From assembly GCA_031409335.1 (NCBI GenBank), contig JANNWY010000252.1:1-33812 (forward strand): a stretch of 33,812 bases of DNA, given 5' to 3'. The translations under genes were made by a program, and so were the position numbers. The stretch comes from Chthoniobacteraceae bacterium (GTDB lineage Bacteria > Verrucomicrobiota > Verrucomicrobiia > Chthoniobacterales > Chthoniobacteraceae). The notes below the pieces were generated by a model, which searched no databases, had not been told where the DNA came from, and saw only the letters and a list, made by a program, of their open reading frames with translations. Position 1 is the first letter of the stretch. Each line of letters opens with the position of its first letter. This document shows, piece after piece, positions 1-9,555 of this stretch.

Positions 1-91
1 AGATCGCCTCCGGCGTGTGCCCGTGCTCCGCTATCAGTTCATCCAGCGCTTTGTTCGTTTTCTCTTCTTCTTTGCTTTTTGCTTTTCTCAC
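1..91 (-). CDS. IS256-family transposase, N-terminal part (truncated by window edge)
   Basis: GTG at 91: VRKAKSKEEEKTNKALDELIAEHGHTPEAI..., matching the 'LDELL....TPE.I' N-terminus typical of IS256 transposases. Not in the ORF track because it is incomplete. Confidence 0.65.
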   Translation of the reverse strand, partial: MRKAKSKEEEKTNKALDELIAEHGHTPEAI

Positions 92-141
92 TCGTTTGTG
101 TCCTCTCTTTTGCCGGGTCACACAAACTTTCTGATAGGTCC
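1..141 (-). mobile_element. IS256-family insertion sequence, left end (runs off window)
   Basis: Minus strand from 141 reads GGACCTATCAGAAAGTTTGTGTGA, resembling IS256-family terminal IRs. It is followed by an SD-like AGAGGA and a GTG-start ORF, and it interrupts the cas2 start. Confidence 0.72.
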
Positions 142-175
142 ATCCCATACGAAACGGACTCTTCTTCTCAATCAC
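142..175 (-). pseudogene. cas2: cas2 5' stub interrupted by the IS
   Basis: GTG at 175 overlaps the cas1 stop (GTGA) and gives MIEKKSPFRMG(W), like the type II Cas2 N-terminus 'S.(F/Y)RMGW..V.FDLP'. The IS end follows immediately. Confidence 0.7.
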
Positions 176-1053
176 AACTCCGGCACCCAAAAGGGCTCCA
201 CCGACTTCGCGCTATAGCTCCGCGCCATCGACGACGCCACCGAATCAATCGCATCCATGAGCTTCAGCGAATACCGCGCGTGCGCCACGCGCTGCTCGCG
301 CAGTTCCGTCCCCACCTTCTTCGCCCAAGCCTTCATCCCCACCTCCGGCTCCGCCATGAACTCCGCCAGCATCATATCCACCAGCGGACGAAACGGCTCC
401 ATCAGATCGAAAACCAGCGGCGTCGAGCGATACCGCGGCTTGTGATTTACCCCCAGCGCCGGCGTCAACCCGTGGATCAGGAGACTCCGGTGGCACAGCG
501 CCCCGAGCACCGTGTAGCCATAGTTCAGCATCTGGTTCGGGGCCGAGTCCTCCTTCCGGTCGCGACTCGTCGCCGCCCAGCCGATCGCGGGAAAATACAA
601 CTGCCAGTAACGCCGCGCACAATTCCCCTCATCGATCGGCCCGCCTTTCAGCGCCAGTTCCAGGTGCGGGCTGTGCAGTTGCTTCCGTTCCAGCACCCGC
701 TGCTGATTCACCGTCTTGCCGCGCAGGAGCCGCTGCCACAGCCGCTCATTCAGCCGCTTCGGCTGCGACACCTGATGCAGAAACGCCCGCTGATCGATCA
801 CCCGCCCGAGCGGAGCCGTCACCCCGCACGGCTGGTAAGATTCATTGCAGTGCAAAATGATCCCATCCGTCTCCAGCACCGCCGAGATGAAATTCGACGT
901 CAGCGTCACCCCGCGCGCTGCGATGATCACTGCCCGCATATCCTCATGCGGCAGCCTCCGCTCCGTCTTATCCTGCCCCCGGCAGACGATGAACCCCTGC
1001 TCCTTCGCGAGCGTCGCCCCGTGCTGAAAGACGTGGAGGATGTGAAAGCTCAT
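172..1053 (-). CDS. cas1: Type II CRISPR-associated endonuclease Cas1
   Basis: 293 aa; motifs DEGNCARRYW, PNQMLNYGYTVL, LGVNH, LVFDLMEPFRP. The catalytic E/H/E residues appear intact. Confidence 0.95.
   Translation of the reverse strand: MSFHILHVFQHGATLAKEQGFIVCRGQDKTERRLPHEDMRAVIIAARGVTLTSNFISAVLETDGIILHCNESYQPCGVTAPLGRVIDQRAFLHQVSQPKRLNERLWQRLLRGKTVNQQRVLERKQLHSPHLELALKGGPIDEGNCARRYWQLYFPAIGWAATSRDRKEDSAPNQMLNYGYTVLGALCHRSLLIHGLTPALGVNHKPRYRSTPLVFDLMEPFRPLVDMMLAEFMAEPEVGMKAWAKKVGTELREQRVAHARYSLKLMDAIDSVASSMARSYSAKSVEPFWVPEL
994..1053 (-). repeat. First 60 bp of cas1; direct-repeat partner of 1847..1906
   Basis: 57/60 identical to 1847..1906 by direct comparison. Confidence 0.95.
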
Positions 1054-1142
1054 AGTCGCGCGAGTGCGTCATCCGTCCAGTCAATCGGGTCTGCTTGCCG
1101 TATCGTTCTCGGATCGCCTTGCCGTGTACCGCTTCATACCCA

Positions 1143-1415
1143 TCAGCGATAGATGGCGTGCGACCCGATGTCCACGCTCACGACGATGTCGCCATCCAGG
1201 TAAAAGACCGCGCGCAAGTCCGCCTCCACCCACACCGAATGGATCGTGCGCCCGAACCGCACCGACAGCCCATGAATCTTATGCGTGCGCAGTCGCGGGT
1301 CGAAAGGGTCGGCCTTGAAAATCGCGAACGCCCGCAAAGCGGATTCCTTCTGCCCCGCCGTCAGCTTCCCGAGCGCCTTCCGGAAAGCAGGAGTCGTCTG
1401 AAAGCGATACTTCAC
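1143..1415 (-). CDS. RelE/YafQ-superfamily toxin (mRNA interferase)
   Basis: 90 aa; 'F.TTPAFRKAL..L', 'DPFDPRLRTHKI', 'DLRAVF' and C-terminal 'DIGSHAIY'. Start overlaps the upstream gene's stop (GTGA). Confidence 0.85.
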   Translation of the reverse strand: MKYRFQTTPAFRKALGKLTAGQKESALRAFAIFKADPFDPRLRTHKIHGLSVRFGRTIHSVWVEADLRAVFYLDGDIVVSVDIGSHAIYR

Positions 1416-1600
1416 GGACGCTCCAAATCCCGCAGCGCCTCATCCAGCTCGATCAATTCCCCACGCACCGCCTCCGCCATGCTCCGGCGGAAAGATTCGG
1501 GAATCTCCGCCTCCGTCATCTCGCTCAGCTTCTCCAGCAGCCAAAGTTGATCCGGCTTCGGCAGGGTTTCGATTTCGTGAAGTAGTTCGCTCGTGTTCAT
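1412..1600 (-). CDS. Cognate type II antitoxin
   Basis: 62-aa acidic protein (MNTSELLHEIETLP...W...E...RGEL) directly upstream of and overlapping the toxin. Confidence 0.75.
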   Translation of the reverse strand: MNTSELLHEIETLPKPDQLWLLEKLSEMTEAEIPESFRRSMAEAVRGELIELDEALRDLERP

Positions 1601-1638
1601 AGGTTTGGTTTTTCGCGGTCAGTAATGGGAGGTTGCTC

Positions 1639-1800
1639 TCACCGCGCAGCTTCCTCTCGCAATTCCTGCTCCTGCCCCACCGCACAACGCAAGTCGCCCG
1701 GCGTCTTCTTATCCGCCCAACCGCGCTGCTGCGGTTTGCACATCGCGCAGGCGGAGCGTTTCGGAGCCCGGTAGCGCCGCTGCGTCAGCTTCGTTTTCAT
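1639..1800 (-). CDS. Small basic protein with CxxCKP motif
   Basis: ATG at 1800: MKTKLTQRRYRAPKRSACAMCKPQQRGWADKK... (53 aa). TTGCCA lies exactly 30 nt upstream. Confidence 0.55.
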   Translation of the reverse strand: MKTKLTQRRYRAPKRSACAMCKPQQRGWADKKTPGDLRCAVGQEQELREEAAR

Positions 1801-1836
1801 GCGACTACTTCTGCCTCTTCGCGATGTCTTTGGCAA
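1801..1836 (-). promoter_or_regulatory. Putative leaderless sigma70-type promoter
   Basis: TTGCCA (1836-1831), N17, CAGAAG, N7, ATG(1800). The -10 match is weak. Confidence 0.35.
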
Positions 1837-1906
1837 ATGCGGAGTCCCCCTGCTCCTTCGCAAGCGTCGCGCCGTGCTGAAAGACGCGGAGGATGTGAAA
1901 GCTCAT
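1805..1906 (-). pseudogene. cas1: cas1 5' stub (20 codons of Cas1, then unrelated sequence)
   Basis: MSFHILRVFQHGATLAKEQG|DSAFAKDIAKRQK*. Positions 1847..1906 duplicate the cas1 start. Confidence 0.9.
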
Positions 1907-1910
1907 GGCA

Positions 1911-2537
1911 TCAATCGTCGGGTAGAAGACTCTCCGGGAGACAGAAAAGTTCGCTCGCACTGCCATCCGCGCGCACCGCCACTCGCCCATCCTCCAGCAC
2001 CCGCGTGATCACCCCCCGTAGCGAACCGCGCATCGTCTTCACCCGATCCCCCGCCTGGAATTGCGCCGAGCGCGCCAGGCTGTTGAAACTCTCCACCATC
2101 ACCGTGCGATCGAGCACACCGGTAATGAAATGCGCCACCACCGACGCCACCTCCTTGCGCCGCACAAAAGGCCAGTCGCCAAACAAAGCATTCGTCAGCG
2201 CACGTCCGATTTCCGCAAACGTATTGCCGTTGAAGAAAAGAAACGGTGCCCGCCGATGGCAGGACTTTAGGAAATCGAAAACTTCCTCCAGCGTCAGTTC
2301 CCGGCTTCCAATTTCTCCCCACTCTCGCGCAAGCGCCTCGTGAGTTTCTCGGTTAAAGCCATGCTGCGCTCCGCCTCGCGCGCAGAGTCCTCGGTTGATC
2401 TCGGTGACAGATGCCCAGTCCCGGTTTTGGAGAAAGTGGGCTCGGCTTTGTAACGGTGCTGATTCGCCGCCGCCTCCTCCAGAATGTCCTCCGTCGTCAG
2501 TTTCGCGAGAAGATCGAGTCGGAGTTTCATCAGGCAT
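1911..2537 (-). CDS. Divergent Fic/Doc-like protein with C-terminal KOW/SH3-like segment
   Basis: 'CHRRAPFLFFNGNTF' resembles a degenerate Fic/Doc loop (HPFxDGNxR). C-terminal 'FQAGDRVKTMRGSLRGVITRV' is KOW-like. SD AAAGGAG lies 6 nt before ATG 2537. Confidence 0.55.
   Translation of the reverse strand: MPDETPTRSSRETDDGGHSGGGGGESAPLQSRAHFLQNRDWASVTEINRGLCARGGAQHGFNRETHEALAREWGEIGSRELTLEEVFDFLKSCHRRAPFLFFNGNTFAEIGRALTNALFGDWPFVRRKEVASVVAHFITGVLDRTVMVESFNSLARSAQFQAGDRVKTMRGSLRGVITRVLEDGRVAVRADGSASELFCLPESLLPDD
2294..2530 (-). CDS. 78-aa helical protein nested in an alternative frame of the Fic-like gene (candidate antitoxin)
   Basis: MKLRLDLLAKLTTEDILEEAAANQHRYKAEPTFSKTG...; protein-like amphipathic composition. 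Its ATG lies 30 nt after TTGCCA. Confidence 0.5.
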   Translation of the reverse strand: MKLRLDLLAKLTTEDILEEAAANQHRYKAEPTFSKTGTGHLSPRSTEDSAREAERSMALTEKLTRRLRESGEKLEAGN

Positions 2538-2566
2538 AGCGTGCTCCTTTCCGGTACGGTTGGCAA
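2531..2566 (-). promoter_or_regulatory. Putative leaderless promoter overlapping an SD
   Basis: TTGCCA (2566-2561), N17, CACGCT, N7, ATG(2530). The spacer contains AAAGGAG. Confidence 0.45.
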
Positions 2567-2590
2567 ATGTCCAGTCTTCTCGCCTCTCCC

Positions 2591-3115
2591 CTACTTCCGC
2601 TCATTCAGCCCCGGCAGCGTCGCCACGAGCTTCATCGTCTCCATGCTCACCCGCACCACCCGCTTGAGCAGGTCCACGATGTAGCGCGGCTGCTGGTGCT
2701 CGCGCGCCCAATCGTTCGGGTCGTTGCGGATGCCGCTGTCCTTGTCCACGGTCACTTGGTAGCGCTCCATGATCCACTCGATGGCGGGCTTGCCGTTCAC
2801 CACGTAGTCGTAGGCTTCCAGCGGGATGCCGGTGAGGGTGAGGTGGCTGTTGTAGGTGATGGCCGTCTTGTCCACCTGCTTGTCCTTGCGGCCAAAGGTC
2901 ATCTTCTGCACGAGGAAATCCTTCGCCGGGTCCAGCGCCAGCGCGGCGGTGTGCTCCGCCACGGGCCACGGCTCCACGCTCTCGAAGCCGAGGTGCCAGC
3001 GCGCGAGGTCGCGGCCGGCCTGGCTGAAGCGCCGGAAGTCCGCCGTCTCCCGCGTGCAGGGGATGCGCGGCAGCATCTTCTTCAGGTCGCTGGCAAAGCG
3101 CGCCCAATACTCCGG
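2591..3115 (-). pseudogene. Type ISP (LlaGI/LlaBIII-like) RM enzyme, C-terminal fragment
   Basis: PEY.ARFASDLKKMLPRIP...AGRDLARWHL.FE...ITYNSHLTLTGIP.EAYDYVVNGKPAIEWIMERYQV..DKDSGIRNDPNDW is the characteristic Type ISP C-terminus. It has no native start. Confidence 0.88.
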
Positions 3116-3163
3116 CCAGCCAAAGCTCGTCCCTGATAACACCCCTTGCTCCGTAAATTCCAG

Positions 3164-4135
3164 TTAGCTGGACATTTTTTCTTCGGTGAGCCGTTTGCAC
3201 AAAAGTTGAAAGCAATGTTCGTCGCTGACTCCTAGAAATTTTTCTTTCAGCGCCGCATAGGCGGATTGATCGATGACTAGCTCGTGGACTTCTTCTCTTT
3301 CTTGGGTGGCAGTGAGCACCTGATCCGAAGGGGAGACTTTCATTATGGCAGCACTCAATCGGCGCGTGCCAAGTTCACCAAGGATTTGCATTAGGTTTTG
3401 CGCCGTAGGCTCCGTGACCCATACGCGAACCGTTTCGGTGTTGATGGGCTCCCCTTGAACTCGGAAATAGCAAAGGTTCTTGTCGTTCGCTGCAGGAACT
3501 TTGAAGTATGGCTGGATTTTGGTTCCCGAGCTTCCACCGGTGACAGACCAGACCTTTTGGTCGTCTTCCCCGTAAATCCAAAGGTTACGATTGCCCCTTC
3601 GTCCGCCTTCCCCCTTCTTGATTCTCTCGCTCCATACGGCCCGGTGTTTTTTGGGATTTAGGTTTTGCGCCCGTTCCTCAAAGTAAAGAAATTCGGTGAG
3701 CGAAGAATCATAGATGAGCCATCCACTCCGAAGCTCGATGGGCTTTCCATCTGAAATAGCGATGGCCTTGGTCAGCCGCTCGTCGAGCACTCTTTGGTAG
3801 CTCTTGATCACGATTCGCATCGCGTCGTCTGCGTCCGCTATGTCGGGAAGGGAAACTCGCCGAGTAAGAGCGGGATGCATCATGTAGGTGCCGCAATGCT
3901 TCTTTATAGCCTCCGACTCGGAGCACCGCATCATTTTGTGCTCAAGTGAGAGGCCCGCAGTGGTAACGTCGGCGTTCAGGTTGCTCCAGCCGAGAGAGTC
4001 TAGCCCCCGGGCTTTGCAATAGACGTGTGCCCAATCGGCTTCCTCCAATTTGCGACCCATCATGTAAGCGACGCGCGCGGCAAGTAATGATTTCGCTTTC
4101 TGAAATTCGGCTGGGGTAAAGGCAGGGAGAGTCAT
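3164..4135 (-). CDS. Putative restriction endonuclease (PD-(D/E)XK-like), partner of the m5C MTase
   Basis: 323 aa from ATG 4135, with ATGA overlap on the MTase stop; 'LEEADW...NADV......LEHK' motif; lower-GC codon usage. Confidence 0.6.
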   Translation of the reverse strand: MTLPAFTPAEFQKAKSLLAARVAYMMGRKLEEADWAHVYCKARGLDSLGWSNLNADVTTAGLSLEHKMMRCSESEAIKKHCGTYMMHPALTRRVSLPDIADADDAMRIVIKSYQRVLDERLTKAIAISDGKPIELRSGWLIYDSSLTEFLYFEERAQNLNPKKHRAVWSERIKKGEGGRRGNRNLWIYGEDDQKVWSVTGGSSGTKIQPYFKVPAANDKNLCYFRVQGEPINTETVRVWVTEPTAQNLMQILGELGTRRLSAAIMKVSPSDQVLTATQEREEVHELVIDQSAYAALKEKFLGVSDEHCFQLLCKRLTEEKMSS

Positions 4136-5520
4136 GCGACGGTGGTGATTTTGGATTCCTCTTTGTGTATCTCTCTGCCCATTGCCGTGATGAGAGCCTC
4201 GCCGACTACACGGGCCAGCACCGGCGGCACGGCGTTCCCGATCTGAAATGCGCGCTCCATTCGCGTCCCGTAAAGATACCAATTATCGGGGAACGTCTGG
4301 AGCCGCATCAGCTCCAGATCCGTCAGGTATTCATGCTCCACAAAAACGGGCGGAGTGTCGCCTTGGCGACGGCCCAGCGTGTGCCATTGCTGCCGGGCAA
4401 GCTGTGCCTCCGGCACACCAAAAGGCGCGAGGGCTAGCTTCGCGCCCTGATGTGCGCCGATGGTAGGGGATGGTCTGTTTAGGCTCCAAGTCACGGGCTC
4501 ATTGTGCGGGCGGACCACATTTTTCACCCAAAGGACTGCGTCTTTTCCCAATTTTCCGTATTTCCAATGACCTCTTGGCCAAAGCGCCTCTCCCATCTTG
4601 CACCACGGCTCTAGCTCATCGAAATCAAAGAGCGTTGCTTCAGTATCCGCGCGAGATTTCCCGTGAGTGGGATGAGGCCACTCAAAACTCTCGGCATCAC
4701 GAGAGCCGACGATCAATAGCCGCTCCCGTTGTTGGGGTGCCCCGAAATCGGCAGCATTCAGCATTCTATGGCGGCAATCGTAACCGATCTGTGTGAACTC
4801 ATTGAGGATGATATCCAAGCTCCCACCCGCTTTGTCTTGCCATGTAATCGAGGTGTTATCCGCTGCGCAGCGATAACAAGGCAGCGCGCTTTTCTCTCCG
4901 GCTTGCAAAGCCTCCCAATCATCGAAATTCACGAAGCTGGTCTTGCGGCAACTGCTGCAATACAGGTGAGCAATGGGTGCTTTGGTAAGGGTGAGTCCTT
5001 TGACGTTCTCAAAGAGGAACCAGCGGGGGCGGATTTCATCAACGATGCGGACAAAATCTTTGAACAGCCGTCCAGTATTCGTGTTCACCGCCTCGCGTTT
5101 CCCGGCGCGGCTAAACGGCTGGCAGGGAGGCCCTCCGGCAATCAAATCAATCCCGCCCTTCTTCGTGCCTGCCATTTCCAAAACTTCCGATGAGGGTAAA
5201 TCCCGGATGTCTCGTTCGACGATTTTTGCTTTCTGAAGATAGACCCGGCTAGCGAGGCCAGACTGCAAGCGAGAGCGAAGGTCATCGGCAAGACAGTCAG
5301 GCGTTCCTTTGTAGCACCGCTGTCCCATTTGCGTTCCAAACCAAGCCTCGAACTCATGCGGGGCAAGGCGACTGAGCACTTGATTCTGTCGCAATGTTTC
5401 ACAGGCGTGTGGACCGAATTCATTTGCCACCAGCGTTTCAAACCCCGCTTGCTCAAGCCCTAAATCTAATCCACCAGCACCGGTGAAAAGTGAAATCAAG
5501 GAATGCGGCCTCTGTTTCAT
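4132..5520 (-). CDS. DNA (cytosine-5)-methyltransferase
   Basis: Motifs I (SLFTGAGGLDLG), IV (GGPPCQPFS), VI (FENVKG), VIII (QQRER), IX (RLQTFPD) and X (QIGNAVPP). Confidence 0.95.
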   Translation of the reverse strand: MKQRPHSLISLFTGAGGLDLGLEQAGFETLVANEFGPHACETLRQNQVLSRLAPHEFEAWFGTQMGQRCYKGTPDCLADDLRSRLQSGLASRVYLQKAKIVERDIRDLPSSEVLEMAGTKKGGIDLIAGGPPCQPFSRAGKREAVNTNTGRLFKDFVRIVDEIRPRWFLFENVKGLTLTKAPIAHLYCSSCRKTSFVNFDDWEALQAGEKSALPCYRCAADNTSITWQDKAGGSLDIILNEFTQIGYDCRHRMLNAADFGAPQQRERLLIVGSRDAESFEWPHPTHGKSRADTEATLFDFDELEPWCKMGEALWPRGHWKYGKLGKDAVLWVKNVVRPHNEPVTWSLNRPSPTIGAHQGAKLALAPFGVPEAQLARQQWHTLGRRQGDTPPVFVEHEYLTDLELMRLQTFPDNWYLYGTRMERAFQIGNAVPPVLARVVGEALITAMGREIHKEESKITTVA

Positions 5521-5564
5521 GTCGTTTTAGTGAGGGGGGTAGCGGAACCAGAGAAGTCGGCAAG

Positions 5565-6718
5565 AGCTTTCACGTAGAGGCACTTTTTTCCCCGGAGGAA
5601 ATCGCATCGTGGACCTTCACGAAATGGCTCTCGTCCTCGCCGCTGATGGTGACGCCCGTGGTGCGGTGGGCCTCGTCGCAGATGATGAGATCGAAGTCCG
5701 GCAGCCCCGCCTTCTGCGCCTCGGCCACCGCGGCGATGGACTGGTAGGTGGAGAAGACCACCGTCATCTGCGCGGGCGTCTTCTTTTTCTCCGCCATGCT
5801 CTGCACGGCGCGATGCTGCTTCACGATCTGCCGCGCGGAAGTCGTGGCGGGAAAGGCGAGGTCGATCGTGGTGATGTCCGCGCTGTCGTCGTCGGTCTTG
5901 GTGTGCTTCTTGCCGATATTCGCATCGGAGCAGACGGCGAGGCTGTGGAGCGGGCGCGTGGATTCCGCCGTCCATTCGCGCAAGCTCTGCGAAAGCAGGG
6001 AGAGCGACGGCACGAGGAAAAGGATGTGCCCCGTGGGTGCCATGCGCTCGGCGATGCAGAGCGAGGTGAAGGTCTTCCCCGTGCCGCAGGCCATGATGAG
6101 CTTGCCACGGTCGGCAACGGCGAGGCCGGCGAGCACATCCTTGCTCGCCTCGTCCTGATGCGGCCTCGGCTTCTTCCGCGCGCGGAGGCCAAGGTCTTGC
6201 GGGCGCTTGAGGTCGAACTTCGACCAGTCAATCGGGCTTTCGTCGAGGTCCTGGACGCGCAGACGGGAGACGGGCTTGGATTGGCTGACGAGCGCGTGCT
6301 CGGCATTCGGCCCCCATTTGTCCGCCGTGGAGACGATGATGCACGAGGTGAAGAGCGTCTTTCCCGAAGCGGTGAAGAAGGAATCCAAGTCCGCCTTCGA
6401 GAGCGTGTGATCCGGCAGGTAGAACTTGCACTGGATGGCGCAGAATTCGCCCGTGGCGCGCTCCTCCGCCACGATGTCTATGCCCACGTCGCCGACGGCT
6501 CCTTTGCGCGGGAATTCATTCCACATCCAGACGCGGGAGAATCGCTCCACGTAGATCGGATCGAGTTCGAGATAGCGGCAGATGAGGCGCTCGAAGCGGT
6601 CGCCAAGATCGCGGTTCGAGGAAGCCTCCTCGCGAAACTGCGCGAGGATGGTGTGGATGGTCTGCTTCCCGCCGGAACCGGAATGCTGCTCTGTCGCTGG
6701 GGGCTTTCCTTTGCTCAT
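5565..6718 (-). pseudogene. Type ISP RM enzyme, N-terminal fragment (Mrr-like nuclease plus start of SF2 helicase)
   Basis: GDRFERL, DVGIDIVA...AIQCKFY, PRPHQ, MACGTGKT, DEAHRTTG. A 1-bp frameshift at ~5604 is followed by degenerate 'DFLRGKKCLYVKA' (cf. KRLYMTATP), then homology ends. Confidence 0.9.
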
Positions 6719-6754
6719 CGCGCGTCCTCTATCGGAACGTGCGATGAATGGCAC
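6719..6754 (-). promoter_or_regulatory. Putative promoter/RBS of the Type ISP gene
   Basis: GTGCCA (6754-6749), N17, TAGAGG, N7, ATG(6718). GAGG could alternatively be an SD. Confidence 0.3.
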
Positions 6755-6848
6755 GGGGGAAATGCGGGGGCGGGGCGGCGATCGTTTTTTCGCGCACGGC
6801 TTCGCCGATGGAGGCTTTGCCGAGGTCGAAGGACCAGATGGTTTTCAT
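6729..6848 (-). pseudogene. cas9: cas9 5' stub (RuvC-I motif only)
   Basis: ATG 6848: MKTIWSFDLGKASIGEAVR matches RuvC-I 'hhDhGxxShGxA', then unrelated sequence and a stop at codon 40. Same strand as, and upstream of, the type II cas1-cas2. Confidence 0.8.
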
Positions 6849-7123
6849 AGTGGGATGCCTGCCTTGAGTTGCTCTAGATTCATACCTGATGATTGGGGTT
6901 CGCCGGAAGGAGAACAGCTTCGGGGCGGCGGGGCGAGGCAGGCGGCGGAAGAGCCGGGGCCGTTCGCGGAAGACGCGCGGTTTGTGCCCGACCCGCCGCC
7001 AGCTCACTGCGGAGCTGGACAGCGTGAGCAGAAAGGGGTCGCTTTTAAGATGACGCTCTCATGCTGATGAGCAAACCGATGAATGCAGCTTGAAGGTCAC
7101 CGATTCCCTGGCGGGCGCGAAAT

Positions 7124-7978
7124 CTACTTCGCCACGACGACCTTCAGTTTCCGCGAGGAGATACGGAAGGTGACGGGGAGTTTCGTGACGACTTCGCCAT
7201 CGACTTCGACGGGCACGTCGTCCGCGCTGGAGACGGCGACGCGTTTGGTTTGGAAGTAATCCACGTCGGCGAGGCCGGTGTGGTTTCCCATGAGGATGGT
7301 GCCGAGGTAACGCGCGATGTCGAGGTAGCCGAGGTTTTTGAAGATGAGGACGTCGAGCTTGCCGTCGTCGATCCGGGCGTCCTTGAAAAATGCGACGGGG
7401 CCGCCGTAGTAGCGGCCATTGCCGATGAGGACGAAGGAGCCTTCGCGGCGGTGGCCGTCGTGCTCGACGATGAGCTTGGGCGGCGGGCGCGCGGCGATTT
7501 GCGCGGCGGAGATGACGTAGCTGAGCGGGCCGAAGTTTTTTTTGAAACTGCGGCTGGTGGCTTGCACGACTTGGGCATCGAGGCCGACGCCGGCGAGCTG
7601 CACGAAATACTGGTCGTTCGCGCGGACGAGATCGATGCGGCGGGTGTGGCCTGCCTGGATGATTTCCCACGCTTTCGGGAGGTTGTTCGGGATGCCGAGT
7701 TCGGCGGCGAAGACGTTCATGGTGCCGACGGGCAGGATGCCGAGGGCGATGTCGGAGCCGGCGATGCCGTTGACGACTTCATTGATCGTGCCATCGCCTC
7801 CGGCCGCGACGACGGTGGCGAAACCCTGCGCGACTGCCCACCCGGCGATGCTGCGCGCGTCGCCCGGCGCGGAAGTGGTCTGCACGGTGGCCGCGGGTAA
7901 ATCGCGGATTTTCTCCCAAGTCCCGCCGGCGCGTTCGCTGCGGGCGGCGGGGTTCAGGATGACGAGGATTTTCTCCAT
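7124..7978 (-). CDS. Diacylglycerol/lipid kinase, YegS/DagK family
   Basis: ILNPAA, AAGGDGTINEVVNG, LPVGTMNVFA, GVGLDA, NGRYYGG, VEVDGE. Confidence 0.92.
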   Translation of the reverse strand: MEKILVILNPAARSERAGGTWEKIRDLPAATVQTTSAPGDARSIAGWAVAQGFATVVAAGGDGTINEVVNGIAGSDIALGILPVGTMNVFAAELGIPNNLPKAWEIIQAGHTRRIDLVRANDQYFVQLAGVGLDAQVVQATSRSFKKNFGPLSYVISAAQIAARPPPKLIVEHDGHRREGSFVLIGNGRYYGGPVAFFKDARIDDGKLDVLIFKNLGYLDIARYLGTILMGNHTGLADVDYFQTKRVAVSSADDVPVEVDGEVVTKLPVTFRISSRKLKVVVAK

Positions 7979-8034
7979 GGGTGCAGCGGGCATTCGGCCT
8001 TTTCTTTCGAGGTTCGGTGACTACTTTCTGCGCC

Positions 8035-9555
8035 GTGAAACGACATTCCAAGGTGATTCTCGTCGTCCTCGCCGTGCTGCTCGCGATCGTCGGGATCGCG
8101 CTGCTCGGCGCGAAAACCTATGTCGAATCGACGAGCACGCGCAATCGCATCGAGGCGCAACTGGGCCGCGTGCTCGGGCTGCCGCTGGCGATTTCCGAAG
8201 TGAGTCTGTGGCCGTGGAGCGGCTTGAAAATCAGTGGCGTGAGCGTGCCGGGGGATGACGGGAATTTCCTCGAGGGCGCGACCTTCCGCGCGCGCTGCCG
8301 CTTTGTGCCGCTGCTCCAGCGGCGGCTGGAGATTTACGGTCTGCGCGCGGAGAATCCGAGGATCGTGTGGCGCGAGGGCGCGGATGGAAAATGGACGCTG
8401 CCGCAACGGGTGAAGGCGACCGCGGATGAGCCGAACGAGCTATCGGAAGCGCCAAAGGAAGGTGGATCGAAGGAGAAAAAGTCCGAGGGATTTCAGGTGA
8501 CGGTCGATGGCTTGAAGATCGCCAACGCGGCGATCGAGCTTTTGAACAAGGAGAAGAAATCGGTGGTGAAGCTGGTCGGCGTGAACATCGACTACGGCGT
8601 GCTGACGCCGGAGCGCGTGGAGGGAACGCTGCGGATCGACCGCGTGCAATGGAGCGCGCTCGCGATCACGCAGGTGCAGGCGCCTTTCAAATACACGCCG
8701 GACGCGGTGACGCTGACGCCGCTGGAGGGCACGGTCGCGGGTGGCGCGCTGAAGGGTTCGCTGAGCCTCCAGCCGAAAGTGCAGGGCATCCCTTTCAACG
8801 CCGATCTGAAGCTGACGGCGGCAGATGTGGGCAAGCTGATGAACGAAACGGGCTGGGCGCCGAATCAGTTTTTCGGACGCATCGACGGCTTTGTGGAGAT
8901 GCACGGAACGGTGCGGCGGCTGGTGAAGGTGGAGGGAAAAGGCGCGCTTTCGCTGAGGGGCGCGGAGATCAAGGGCTTTGAGTTTTTCAAGACGATCTCG
9001 GAAGGGTTGCACATCCCGGAACTGGCGGATTTGCGCCTCGGGGATTCGTCCACAGAGATCCGGCTCGGGGATGAAAAAGTGTTCATCGACTCGCTCGCGC
9101 TGAATTCGCCCGCGGTGAAAGTGCTCGCGAGCGGGCTTGTGCGCTTGAACGGCCGGATCACGGTGGATGCGCGGCTGGCGCTGGCGGAGGGGACGATCAG
9201 GCAGTTGCCGGATTTCGTGCGGGAATTCGTGGCGAATGTGAACGGCGAAAACGGCATCGACTTCAAAGTCGGCGGCACACTTTCCAAACCGAAAACCGAT
9301 CTGCTCGACAAGGTGAGCGGCAAGCGCGCGCTGAGCCAGGCGGTGGATGTGGTGGGGAATCTTTTCGGCGATCGAAAAAAGAAGGACGACAAAAAGAAGG
9401 AGAAAAAGACCGAGACCGCGAAAGCGACGCCGCCCCCTCTGCCCGCGCTCGATCCGACGGCGACGACGGTCGTCCCGCCGGCTGATGCGCCGCCGACTTT
9501 GCCGACGCTGCCGACCCCCCCGGCTCCGCCAGCATCCGAGCCGCCGCTGCCGTGA
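8035..9555 (+). CDS. AsmA-family protein
   Basis: N-terminal TM anchor, beta-rich body, C-terminal 'FKVGGTLSKPK' and a Pro-rich tail. GTG start inferred. Confidence 0.75.
   Translation: MKRHSKVILVVLAVLLAIVGIALLGAKTYVESTSTRNRIEAQLGRVLGLPLAISEVSLWPWSGLKISGVSVPGDDGNFLEGATFRARCRFVPLLQRRLEIYGLRAENPRIVWREGADGKWTLPQRVKATADEPNELSEAPKEGGSKEKKSEGFQVTVDGLKIANAAIELLNKEKKSVVKLVGVNIDYGVLTPERVEGTLRIDRVQWSALAITQVQAPFKYTPDAVTLTPLEGTVAGGALKGSLSLQPKVQGIPFNADLKLTAADVGKLMNETGWAPNQFFGRIDGFVEMHGTVRRLVKVEGKGALSLRGAEIKGFEFFKTISEGLHIPELADLRLGDSSTEIRLGDEKVFIDSLALNSPAVKVLASGLVRLNGRITVDARLALAEGTIRQLPDFVREFVANVNGENGIDFKVGGTLSKPKTDLLDKVSGKRALSQAVDVVGNLFGDRKKKDDKKKEKKTETAKATPPPLPALDPTATTVVPPADAPPTLPTLPTPPAPPASEPPLP

Follow-up and report, generated by a model that had tools for sequence, protein, structure and literature searches.

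The contig JANNWY010000252.1 of a Chthoniobacteraceae bacterium (assembly GCA_031409335.1), analyzed here over its whole length of 33,812 nucleotides (nt) and called the window below, contains a dead type II-C CRISPR-Cas locus whose genes have been overwritten piece by piece. The gene cas9 is reduced to its first 19 codons and a few terminal bases, cas2 to its first 12 codons, and the intact cas1 is preceded by a displaced copy of its own start. We consider these stubs to be, probably, scars of integrase-free recombination in which DNA of diverged relatives was anchored by homology to the resident genes. Similar duplicated gene ends recur elsewhere in the same genome and in related loci, often around toxin-antitoxin (TA), restriction-modification (RM) or nuclease genes.

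A dismantled type II-C CRISPR-Cas locus

The closest relative of the locus is L019, a 6.2-kb contig of a Chthoniobacter sp. metagenome-assembled genome (MAG), which has the order intact cas9 (1173 amino acids, aa), orf208, cas1, and whose Cas1 shares 97% aa identity with that of the window. The relatives of its Cas1 put the window among Chthoniobacter-like Verrucomicrobiota. The two sequences match in three stretches: the first 57 nt of cas9 (98%), a 730-nt block (93.4%) that spans from 5 nt before the cas9 stop codon through the conserved gene orf208 to nt 60 of cas1, and cas1 itself (90.7%). It follows that cas9 from codon 20 to the penultimate codon has been replaced by window positions 6791–2577. 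Upstream of the cas9 ATG the sequences of the window and L019 are unrelated. According to the list of open reading frames (ORFs), the minus strand carries all genes from position 7993 down to 1, and the following features define the locus.

6792–6848, minus strand: cas9 stub, codons 1–19 (RuvC-I block), MKTIWSFDLGKASIGEAVR; shares 98% identity with the opening 57 nt of the intact cas9 genes of L019 and L012
2572–2576, minus strand: last ~5 nt of cas9, with TGG in place of the stop codon TGA; from here on L019 aligns again
1847–1906, minus strand: cas1 stub, displaced codons 1–20, contiguous with orf208; 57 of 60 nt identical to the cas1 start
994–1053, minus strand: direct-repeat partner, codons 1–20 inside the intact cas1; 57/60 to the stub and 60/60 to L019 cas1
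172–1053, minus strand: intact type II cas1, 293 aa (PF01867, E 1.7e-32; TIGR03639 cas1_NMENI, E 3e-42, above cut-off)
140–175, minus strand: cas2 stub, VIEKKSPFRMGW, the same 12 codons with which cas2 of L012 begins
1–141, minus strand: repeat, start of an IS256/Mutator-family transposase gene (end of an insertion sequence, IS); 100% identical to the ends of contigs C67, C179 and C128 and 91% to C96:14412–14550
7124–7993, minus strand: lipid kinase gene (DAGK_cat and YegS_C in Pfam), a conserved chromosomal neighbor; same-genus synteny ends at its stop codon

The cas9 stub also matches L011 (98% over a 56–57-nt block starting a few bases later), and blastn places the block at the cas9 starts of 37 of 80 relative loci with 80–98% identity (61 tblastn matches). 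A tblastn search with L019 Cas9 finds no cas9 body in the assembly, which at 98% completeness does not prove its loss; the only HNH_4 match in the genome is an unrelated 226-aa ORF. Cas2 of L012 aligns by tblastn through its residues 1–13 at positions 178–140 (100%) and nowhere else in the genome, and the homology with L011 and L012 ends at 139. Pfam detects no Cas2 genome-wide and blastn no match to the L012 repeat region, although the contig ends in an IS and further DNA may be unassembled. This terminal element, of the IS256 (Mutator) family, breaks the contig and cuts cas2; a full copy on C96 matches Transposase_mut (E 3e-123), and the window holds only the first ~45 codons of it. Measured against a type II-C system, the locus retains its Cas1, whereas full-length Cas9, a complete cas2 and a downstream array were not found in the assembly.

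The 60-nt cas1 repeat is the only such pair on the contig. Its upstream copy lies inside the 730-nt block and differs from L019 cas1 at three positions (57/60 identical). The start of the intact cas1 is almost indistinguishable from L019 (119/120 over the first 120 nt) and later 60-nt windows range from 48/54 to 58/60; the gene is a mosaic of the kind that a recombination event at its start would leave. A template/variable repeat pair of a diversity-generating retroelement was considered for the 60-nt repeat and rejected: the three mismatches show no restriction to adenine, and a reverse transcriptase is absent. The original prediction, made from the letters of the window, regarded the cas9 and cas1 stubs as two instances of one kind of event. 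They differ: the cas1 stub forms half of a duplication whose other copy opens the intact cas1 downstream, while the cas9 stub is what a replacement left behind and has no second copy.

The window represents the whole contig C252 of a 7.9-Mb metagenome bin (326 contigs, 98% complete, 3% contamination), and the samples also contain variant contigs from related strains; both points would favor a chimera of co-occurring strains. Logan contigs of two sequencing runs, X1 and X2, produced by a different assembler, reproduce the window with 0 differences over 112–897, 998–2393, 1758–2730, 3076–6110 and 6549–7529. Every junction is bridged in this way, including the cas1 stub (X2 contig 998–2393 and X1 contig 1758–2730) and the nested region (a 3035-nt contig, 3076–6110, present in both runs), which argues that the locus is not an assembly chimera. 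This support comes from assembled contigs rather than raw reads, and X1 or X2 may be the source sample itself; nevertheless, a chimera now appears a negligible risk. X1 and X2 belong to a single freshwater-sediment study and together account for 97% of the sampled words. The shares of runs X4 and X6–X10 are small and give no basis for claims on habitat or strain.

The same data contain traces of unbroken alleles. Loose ends in run X5, from a second study, continue into an intact cas2 past 139 and into a cas9 3′ end past 2555, and in several runs contigs with the same cas9 start then diverge from the window as other cas9 genes would, judging by 30-letter consensus ends only. These contigs indicate that unbroken alleles are present in related strains, and together with the intact cas9 of L019 they bear out the expectation that some relatives would carry a cas9-containing allele. 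The lipid kinase gene, suggested as an anchor for finding such alleles, did not deliver them: four same-genus genomes share an AsmA-like gene and the lipid kinase, and none has CRISPR after the kinase.

Between the cas9 remnants lies a nested set of defense genes. All parts listed in the original prediction are present and co-oriented on the minus strand, and its statement that the locus contains no integrase, attachment site or inverted repeat also stands: no gap exceeds ~130 nt, too little for an integrase gene to fit, and inverted repeats reach at best 38 nt with 71% identity. The nested features are as follows.

5568–6791, minus strand (ORF 6754–5570): Type ISP 5′ remnant, Mrr-like nuclease and first helicase lobe (Mrr_cat_2, ResIII), with ~125 nt of its own upstream sequence
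3123–5567, minus strand: Type II RM-like cassette in the Type ISP gap, m5C methylase plus a 318–372-aa ORF
4132–5520, minus strand: m5C methylase (PF00145, E 1e-58; TIGR00675, E 1e-50; PADLOC MTase_II, E 1e-70)
4120/4282–3164, minus strand: 318–372-aa ORF, candidate endonuclease, adjacent to and co-oriented with the methylase
2591–3122, minus strand (ORF 3142–2591): Type ISP 3′ remnant, C-terminal specificity domain (Type_ISP_C, E 3e-47)

The two Type ISP remnants correspond to residues 12–361 and 1420–1573 of the 1578-residue LlaBIII, and to positions 3–353 and 1464–1639 of one PADLOC model of 1646 positions. Genome G172 carries a collinear full-length Type ISP gene in which the counterparts of window positions 6667–5604 and 3116–2624 lie 3.3 kb apart (3116–2624 corresponds to 9052–9547 of that gene at 87%). 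In the window only the ends of the enzyme are left: the middle 3.3 kb is absent, and a 1-nt deletion shifts the frame of the 5′ part near 5604. The Type ISP N-terminal part has matches in 20 of 301 genomes of the order, the window's own included, and in the three inspected in detail (G129, G172 and G234) the Type ISP genes are long or full-length and free of the RM insert. The predicted nesting of a Type II RM system within Type ISP within the cas9 footprint is therefore real, with unbroken forms held by relatives (cas9 in L019, Type ISP in G172); as to order, it shows no more than that the RM cassette went into a Type ISP gene that was still complete. The methylase of the insert was correctly recognized, and its neighbor is a real ORF. 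The nuclease identity given to that neighbor is no more than a candidate assignment: the 318-aa ORF has no match in Pfam, NCBIfam, PADLOC or PDB sequences, and the one pointer to a nuclease is an ESM-Atlas cluster (0.92), 22% of whose members contain RE_NgoFVII_C.

Whether these layers accumulated in place is a separate matter. The whole nested block, from the cas9 start through the hollowed-out Type ISP gene and its RM insert to orf208, could have been assembled elsewhere and imported in one recombination with the cas9 start and orf208/cas1 as arms, a scenario that we regard as possible if somewhat unlikely. It agrees with the conservation of the 57-nt cas9 block across the 37 relatives, with the unrelated DNA upstream of the cas9 ATG in the window and L019, and with the lack of any same-genus genome having CRISPR beside the lipid kinase. 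On the other hand, the composite was found in no other genome or contig, and the inspected Type ISP genes lack the insert. Furthermore, the GC content of the RM insert (0.53–0.59) is below that of the Type ISP remnants (0.62–0.65), suggesting that they have separate histories. The serial replacement proposed originally thus holds as far as the replacements themselves are concerned; the layers may have been added in place or may have arrived together.

The cargo between the cas1 stub and the intact cas1 comprises three small ORFs.

1639–1800, minus strand: CxxC ORF, 53 aa, beginning 4 nt past the stop of the stub reading frame; no family match
1412–1600, minus strand: likely antitoxin, 62 aa, assigned by position; overlaps the toxin gene by 4 nt; no family match
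1143–1415, minus strand: likely RelE/YafQ-type toxin, 90 aa (YafQ_toxin, E 0.15; ParE_like, E 0.17; both below significance)

The gene layout expected of the proposed antitoxin–RelE pair is present, with small, overlapping, co-oriented genes in antitoxin-first order, and the same order is seen with the toxin homologue of L080. The family matches of the toxin all remain below significance, including those of the 90-aa ORF to the H. pylori RelE/YafQ-type structures 4ls4, 1z8m and 4ltt (E 0.12–0.18, full length). L080 is the only relative with a homologue of this RelE-like toxin (50% aa identity); there, at L080:2497–4078, it is flanked by direct repeats of 291 nt with 97.6% identity, which overlap an ORF of 166 aa that by eye resembles a GxxExxY/PDDEXK_3-type gene. 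Contigs of runs X1–X3 match the window to the right of 1692, in the 5′ half of the CxxC ORF, and differ to the left; they may come from a related allele in which different cargo follows this stub.

Duplicated gene ends across the genome and in relatives

Comparison of each contig with itself (direct repeats of at least 87% identity, 45–700 nt long, 250–6000 nt apart) yielded 117 short-range direct-repeat pairs genome-wide, 67 of them isolated. Nine of the isolated pairs are internal to one ORF, one is the pair of the window, and the other 57 fall into 50 regions; the underlying gene calls are crude (ORF length and GC content at third codon positions, GC3) and leave 11 pairs without an assigned ORF. 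Cargo of TA, RM or nuclease type, as classified by us from Pfam matches, is found in 17 of the 50 regions and accounts for 24 of 106 cargo ORFs. The families include PIN (6 ORFs), ParE, Phd/RelB with MNT-HEPN and HNH, HNH, DUF433 with DUF5615, Uma2, an Eco57I-type methylase with a BsuBI/PstI endonuclease, AAA_21, UPF0175, HEPN, MazF and DUF4143; the other regions are pairs of paralogues or contain ordinary genes. Duplication affects the 5′ as well as the 3′ ends of genes, with stubs of 45–667 nt.

The genome-wide scan proposed in the original prediction thus recovered gene-end stubs beside TA and RM cargo in 17 further regions, and the same result removed two of its other ideas. A stub length of ~57–60 nt is not a signature: the length shared by the two window stubs is a coincidence, the cas9 stub coinciding with a nucleotide-conserved block. 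Nor is the locus a special slot, given that the same scars occur at lepA, mutL and many other genes.

Several of these regions closely resemble the cas1 duplication. The only other cas1 of the genome belongs to a type I-E operon on C301 (Cse1, E 2e-62), where a DUF2281 + PIN pair between cas6e and cas1 (C301:27152–28376) sits inside a 179-nt repeat (92.7%) that reaches from 15 nt before cas1 to about its codon 54; this locus is known from the assembly alone. At C325:56132–61932 the last 194 nt of lepA are duplicated (93.3%) around a gene for a 1599-aa PATR/PEP-CTERM surface protein on the opposite strand. At C99:2358–5085 a complete Type II RM pair (the Eco57I-type methylase with the BsuBI/PstI endonuclease) lies between the 3′ end of a 621-aa gene and its 45-nt copy. 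Among the 80 relative loci anchored on Cas1, three have cas1 stubs of their own with different cassettes, as had been anticipated.

L013: cas1 stub of 129 nt, cargo DUF4160 + DUF2442
L042: cas1 stub of 74 nt, cargo a homologue of orf208
L037: cas1 stub of 18 codons, cargo 23S_rRNA_IVP

The gene orf208 is itself a frequent cargo. In 80 metagenome loci that carry it (L169–L248, some of them near-duplicates), flanking repeats were found at 20, or at 16 of the 51 evaluable ones, and in at least 4 of the 80 the order is mutL, orf208, mutL 3′ stub. In each of these examples foreign DNA stands between direct copies of a gene end, one of which belongs to an intact gene, which is the layout left by insertion-duplication or by homology-facilitated illegitimate recombination (HFIR).

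The differences between repeat copies are informative. In host genes of at least 100 aa they are distributed over codon positions as 146/116/298, with 283 silent and 277 replacing changes. The bias is much stronger in some pairs: all 13 differences of the lepA pair are silent and in third positions, and the four inspected orf208 loci have 9/9, 9/9, 7/8 and 3/4 silent differences. The type I-E cas1 pair has 7 silent and 3 replacing differences and the type II pair 2 and 1. Such a bias is not that of a freely decaying dead copy. At the same time, no pair exceeds 94.6% in the 18 regions with toxin or defense cargo (window included) or 95.6% in the orf208 loci, and across all 67 pairs values above 97.2% occur only in two short non-genic pairs (45–49 nt, on C107 and C295). 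The lack of near-identical pairs argues against birth as identical copies, since young pairs would be near-identical. Judging from their sequences, the repeat copies look like alleles of different lineages.

For this reason we consider it very unlikely that the repeats are long target-site duplications, identical at birth, produced by staggered breaks 45–600 nt apart or by template switching during insertion. The same layout around unrelated cargos at many unrelated genes would fit a property of the insertion process. However, young events should show pairs near 100%, which are not seen, and the silent bias (lepA, and both orf208 loci with 9/9) is unlike that of a decaying dead copy. We also know of no bacterial mechanism that creates duplications so long and so variable.

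The cassettes could also be small site-specific integrative elements that bring a replacement gene end and depend on a recombinase acting in trans from another locus, with the inner edge of each repeat as the attachment core. Their expected layout, a displaced stub, cargo and a reconstituted gene with mostly silent differences, is the observed one; repeat edges coincide with exact ORF ends in several cases, and orf208 recurs at cas1 starts and mutL ends. Against such elements, which we think clearly unlikely, there is no integrase in or beside the cassettes, and the ends and junctions of the cargo share no motif (a comparison of 20 cargos revealed no common end motif or sequence). In addition, the repeat length varies for one and the same target, with 54, 60, 74, 83 and 129 nt at cas1 and 36–125 nt at mutL.

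We therefore favor homology-anchored recombination with DNA of diverged relatives. In a donor strain, the cargo would lie directly beside the same conserved gene, and a fragment with the cargo and the gene end would enter the recipient cell. As the homology would be one-sided, the fragment could close into a circle again and be inserted through one RecA crossover (Campbell-type insertion-duplication). Alternatively, one end could pair by homology while the other is joined illegitimately inside the gene (HFIR). Either route would produce the order stub, cargo, intact gene, with copies that are different alleles. Addictive or defensive cargo may then persist because its loss through the flanking repeats would be punished, which could explain the enrichment of TA, RM and nuclease genes. 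Where no duplication was left, as with cas9 and the Type ISP gene, the replacement may have been an illegitimate or one-sided event of broadly this kind. Both routes have an experimental precedent in a conjugation study of E. coli, where 56 of 60 integrants obtained with one-sided homology arose by re-circularization and a single RecA-dependent crossover that duplicated 109–950 bp of the target, and the remaining 4 by HFIR (PMC3240628). A repeatable, integrase-independent capture route, as originally suggested, is accordingly retained as the best explanation in the general form of a homology-anchored mechanism, and its characteristic ~60-nt stub is given up.

Several observations weigh against this interpretation. 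Neither a donor, nor an empty and a filled site from the same population, nor a circular intermediate was seen among the contigs. The cas9 stub has no partner copy and hence need not share the origin of the cas1 stub. A repeat of 60 nt at 95% is short for a RecA crossover, compared with the experimental duplications of 109–950 bp. The 16 of 51 orf208 loci with repeats represent a high share for a rare side route, as double crossover, which is scarless, should dominate. Two further regularities are not predicted: the repeat edges lie 0–4 nt from the stop codon in 5 of 11 3′-end cases, and in 4 of 4 inspected loci (L178, L223, L196 and L197) the 3′ stub after the cassette (mutL end and others) is preceded by an in-frame ATG and 4–8 new codons. 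The silent bias could also arise from identical copies if the live gene were later replaced by another allele, and the crude gene calls mentioned above affect the genome-wide figures.

The orf208 cassette and its embedded gene

Two overlapping reading frames occupy the segment between the 3′ end of cas9 and the cas1 stub.

1911–2537, minus strand: orf208, conserved 208-aa protein with a helical domain tentatively likened to Doc/Fic (~28–158) and a KOW/Tudor-like barrel (160–208)
2294–2530, minus strand: embedded gene, 78 aa (MKLRLDLL...), read in the +1 frame of orf208 and starting 7 nt after its ATG

The orf208 family comprises 1300 homologues of ~208 aa, the 120 listed ones covering 92–100% of the query, and has the invariant segment CH..APF...NGNTF...GR. 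The embedded frame, 78–85 codons long across the family, is open in 74 of 74 evaluable metagenome loci and free of stops in 67 of 68 unique homologues. Later in the gene this frame averages 4.15 stops, and the +2 frame is closed in all cases. Third-position entropy of orf208 is 0.73 in codons 26–80 versus 1.5 in codons 81–205. By these patterns, orf208 and the embedded ORF are two conserved overlapping genes. A hint from GC3 that orf208 might be two adjacent genes or a frameshifted one was discarded, as the 120 listed homologues span its length and both frames are constrained; a C-terminal remnant of Cas9 was rejected as well, because L019 has both an intact cas9 and orf208.

AlphaFold models of orf208 (pLDDT 79 and 82) consist of seven helices and a C-terminal barrel, the latter similar to KOW/Tudor domains (VIA Z 8.3). 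The helical domain aligns with Doc (3dd7_A) at VIA Z 6.3 with a root-mean-square deviation of 3.8 over 111 of 123 residues, and 12 of the 20 top VIA rows are Fic/Doc proteins with Z 4.3–6.3, values that according to the tool are common for helical models. Foldseek returned nothing at E ≤ 0.001 for either model, with Phd–Doc at ranks 3–4 (probability 0.35–0.38), and the Pfam Fic model (PF02661) does not match even at E 5. The catalytic motif of Fic/Doc proteins is HxFx(D/E)GN(G/K)R; in the orf208 segment APFLFFNGNTF, aligned by eye, its His, Gly/Lys and Arg positions are occupied by F, T and F. Of the dual-coded Fic-like module seen in the original prediction, the dual coding is confirmed, the Fic/Doc-like fold is tentatively suggested by the structural comparisons, and the Fic motif and Pfam model are missing.

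In 6 of the 80 metagenome loci (L171, L182, L216, L228, L233 and L237) cas1 stands immediately downstream of the orf208 cassette, and this adjacency is far above chance placement. Their Cas1 proteins share 27–33% identity with that of the window in five cases and 67% in L228. A weakly cas9-like stretch (23–27% identity) also lies upstream in L171, L182, L216 and L233, and a clear cas9 in L228. A search of the literature returned nothing that matches a dual-coded Doc-like cassette, a II-C accessory gene in Verrucomicrobia or TA cassettes in cas loci, which is no proof of their absence in print.

This large and unnamed cassette family, with a conserved 78-codon gene within a gene, may matter more than the stub locus itself. 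We propose orf208 and the embedded ORF as a candidate TA pair with an embedded antitoxin, or as a candidate CRISPR-linked accessory. It is also conceivable, but unlikely, that small addiction and defense cassettes of Verrucomicrobiota, including this 1,300-member overlapping-frame family, share a dedicated integrase-free mode of insertion-duplication at conserved gene ends, that as selfish elements they prefer the cas1 start and the mutL end and in this way actively invade and erode CRISPR loci, and that the resulting stubs, some of which have a start codon of their own, are expressed and functional.

Relation to known systems

The locus provides a well-resolved record of defense-locus turnover, in which a CRISPR system was dismantled by defense and addiction genes and unbroken alleles survive in relatives. 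Together with the 17 further regions, both cas1 genes and the independent stubs of relatives, it forms a data set on integrase-free gene gain in uncultured bacteria. The enrichment of TA and restriction genes raises the question of why addictive genes dominate insertions between unstable repeats.

Two of the modules at the locus have characterized counterparts for comparison. The Type ISP remnants match the first ~360 and the last ~155 residues of LlaGI/LlaBIII (PDB 5ffj, 4xqk), but ~1,060 residues are gone (the rest of the helicase, the coupler, the methylase and most of the target-recognition domain), and the N-terminal part is frameshifted. The orf208 module may resemble Phd–Doc/Fic modules: its helical domain aligns best with Doc, and it is a small module with a second small protein. 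It differs in lacking the Pfam Fic match and the motif residues, in having the partner gene inside the toxin-like gene, and in its KOW/Tudor-like C-terminal domain.

The arrangement of the stubs belongs to an already described class of recombination scars. When e14 or phage 21 integrates into icd of E. coli, an integrase acts at a fixed core site, leaving a displaced fragment and a replacement end with mainly silent differences. A displaced gene-end fragment and a replacement end with mainly silent differences are found here too, but there is no integrase domain among the ORFs and no common core.

Campbell-type insertion-duplication and HFIR share with our loci the one-sided homology, the absence of an integrase, and foreign DNA bordered by a partly duplicated target, of which one gene copy is intact and the other truncated (PMC3240628). 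The differences are that here the process is inferred from scars in wild genomes, that duplicates are as short as 45–60 nt, that the cargo is enriched in TA, RM and nuclease genes, and that the copies are 3–13% diverged. Related work on insertion-duplication and HFIR has reportedly been carried out in Acinetobacter, S. pneumoniae and P. stutzeri.

Displacement arrays represent another parallel. Orphan tips at Rhs loci were described with circular intermediates proposed (Jackson 2009, PMC2935791), and the same logic was proposed for arrays of immunity genes at type VI secretion system (T6SS) loci (Kirchberger 2017, PMC5361080). The arrays at Rhs, contact-dependent inhibition (CDI) and T6SS loci have in common with the reading given here for the window serial in-place replacement, orphaned gene ends and recombination at a conserved anchor through circles or HFIR with no integrase. 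Those arrays exchange 3′ toxin tips of one family, whereas in the window defense genes of unrelated kinds have displaced one another within a CRISPR operon, and the scars described here use both the 5′ and the 3′ ends of housekeeping genes as anchors.

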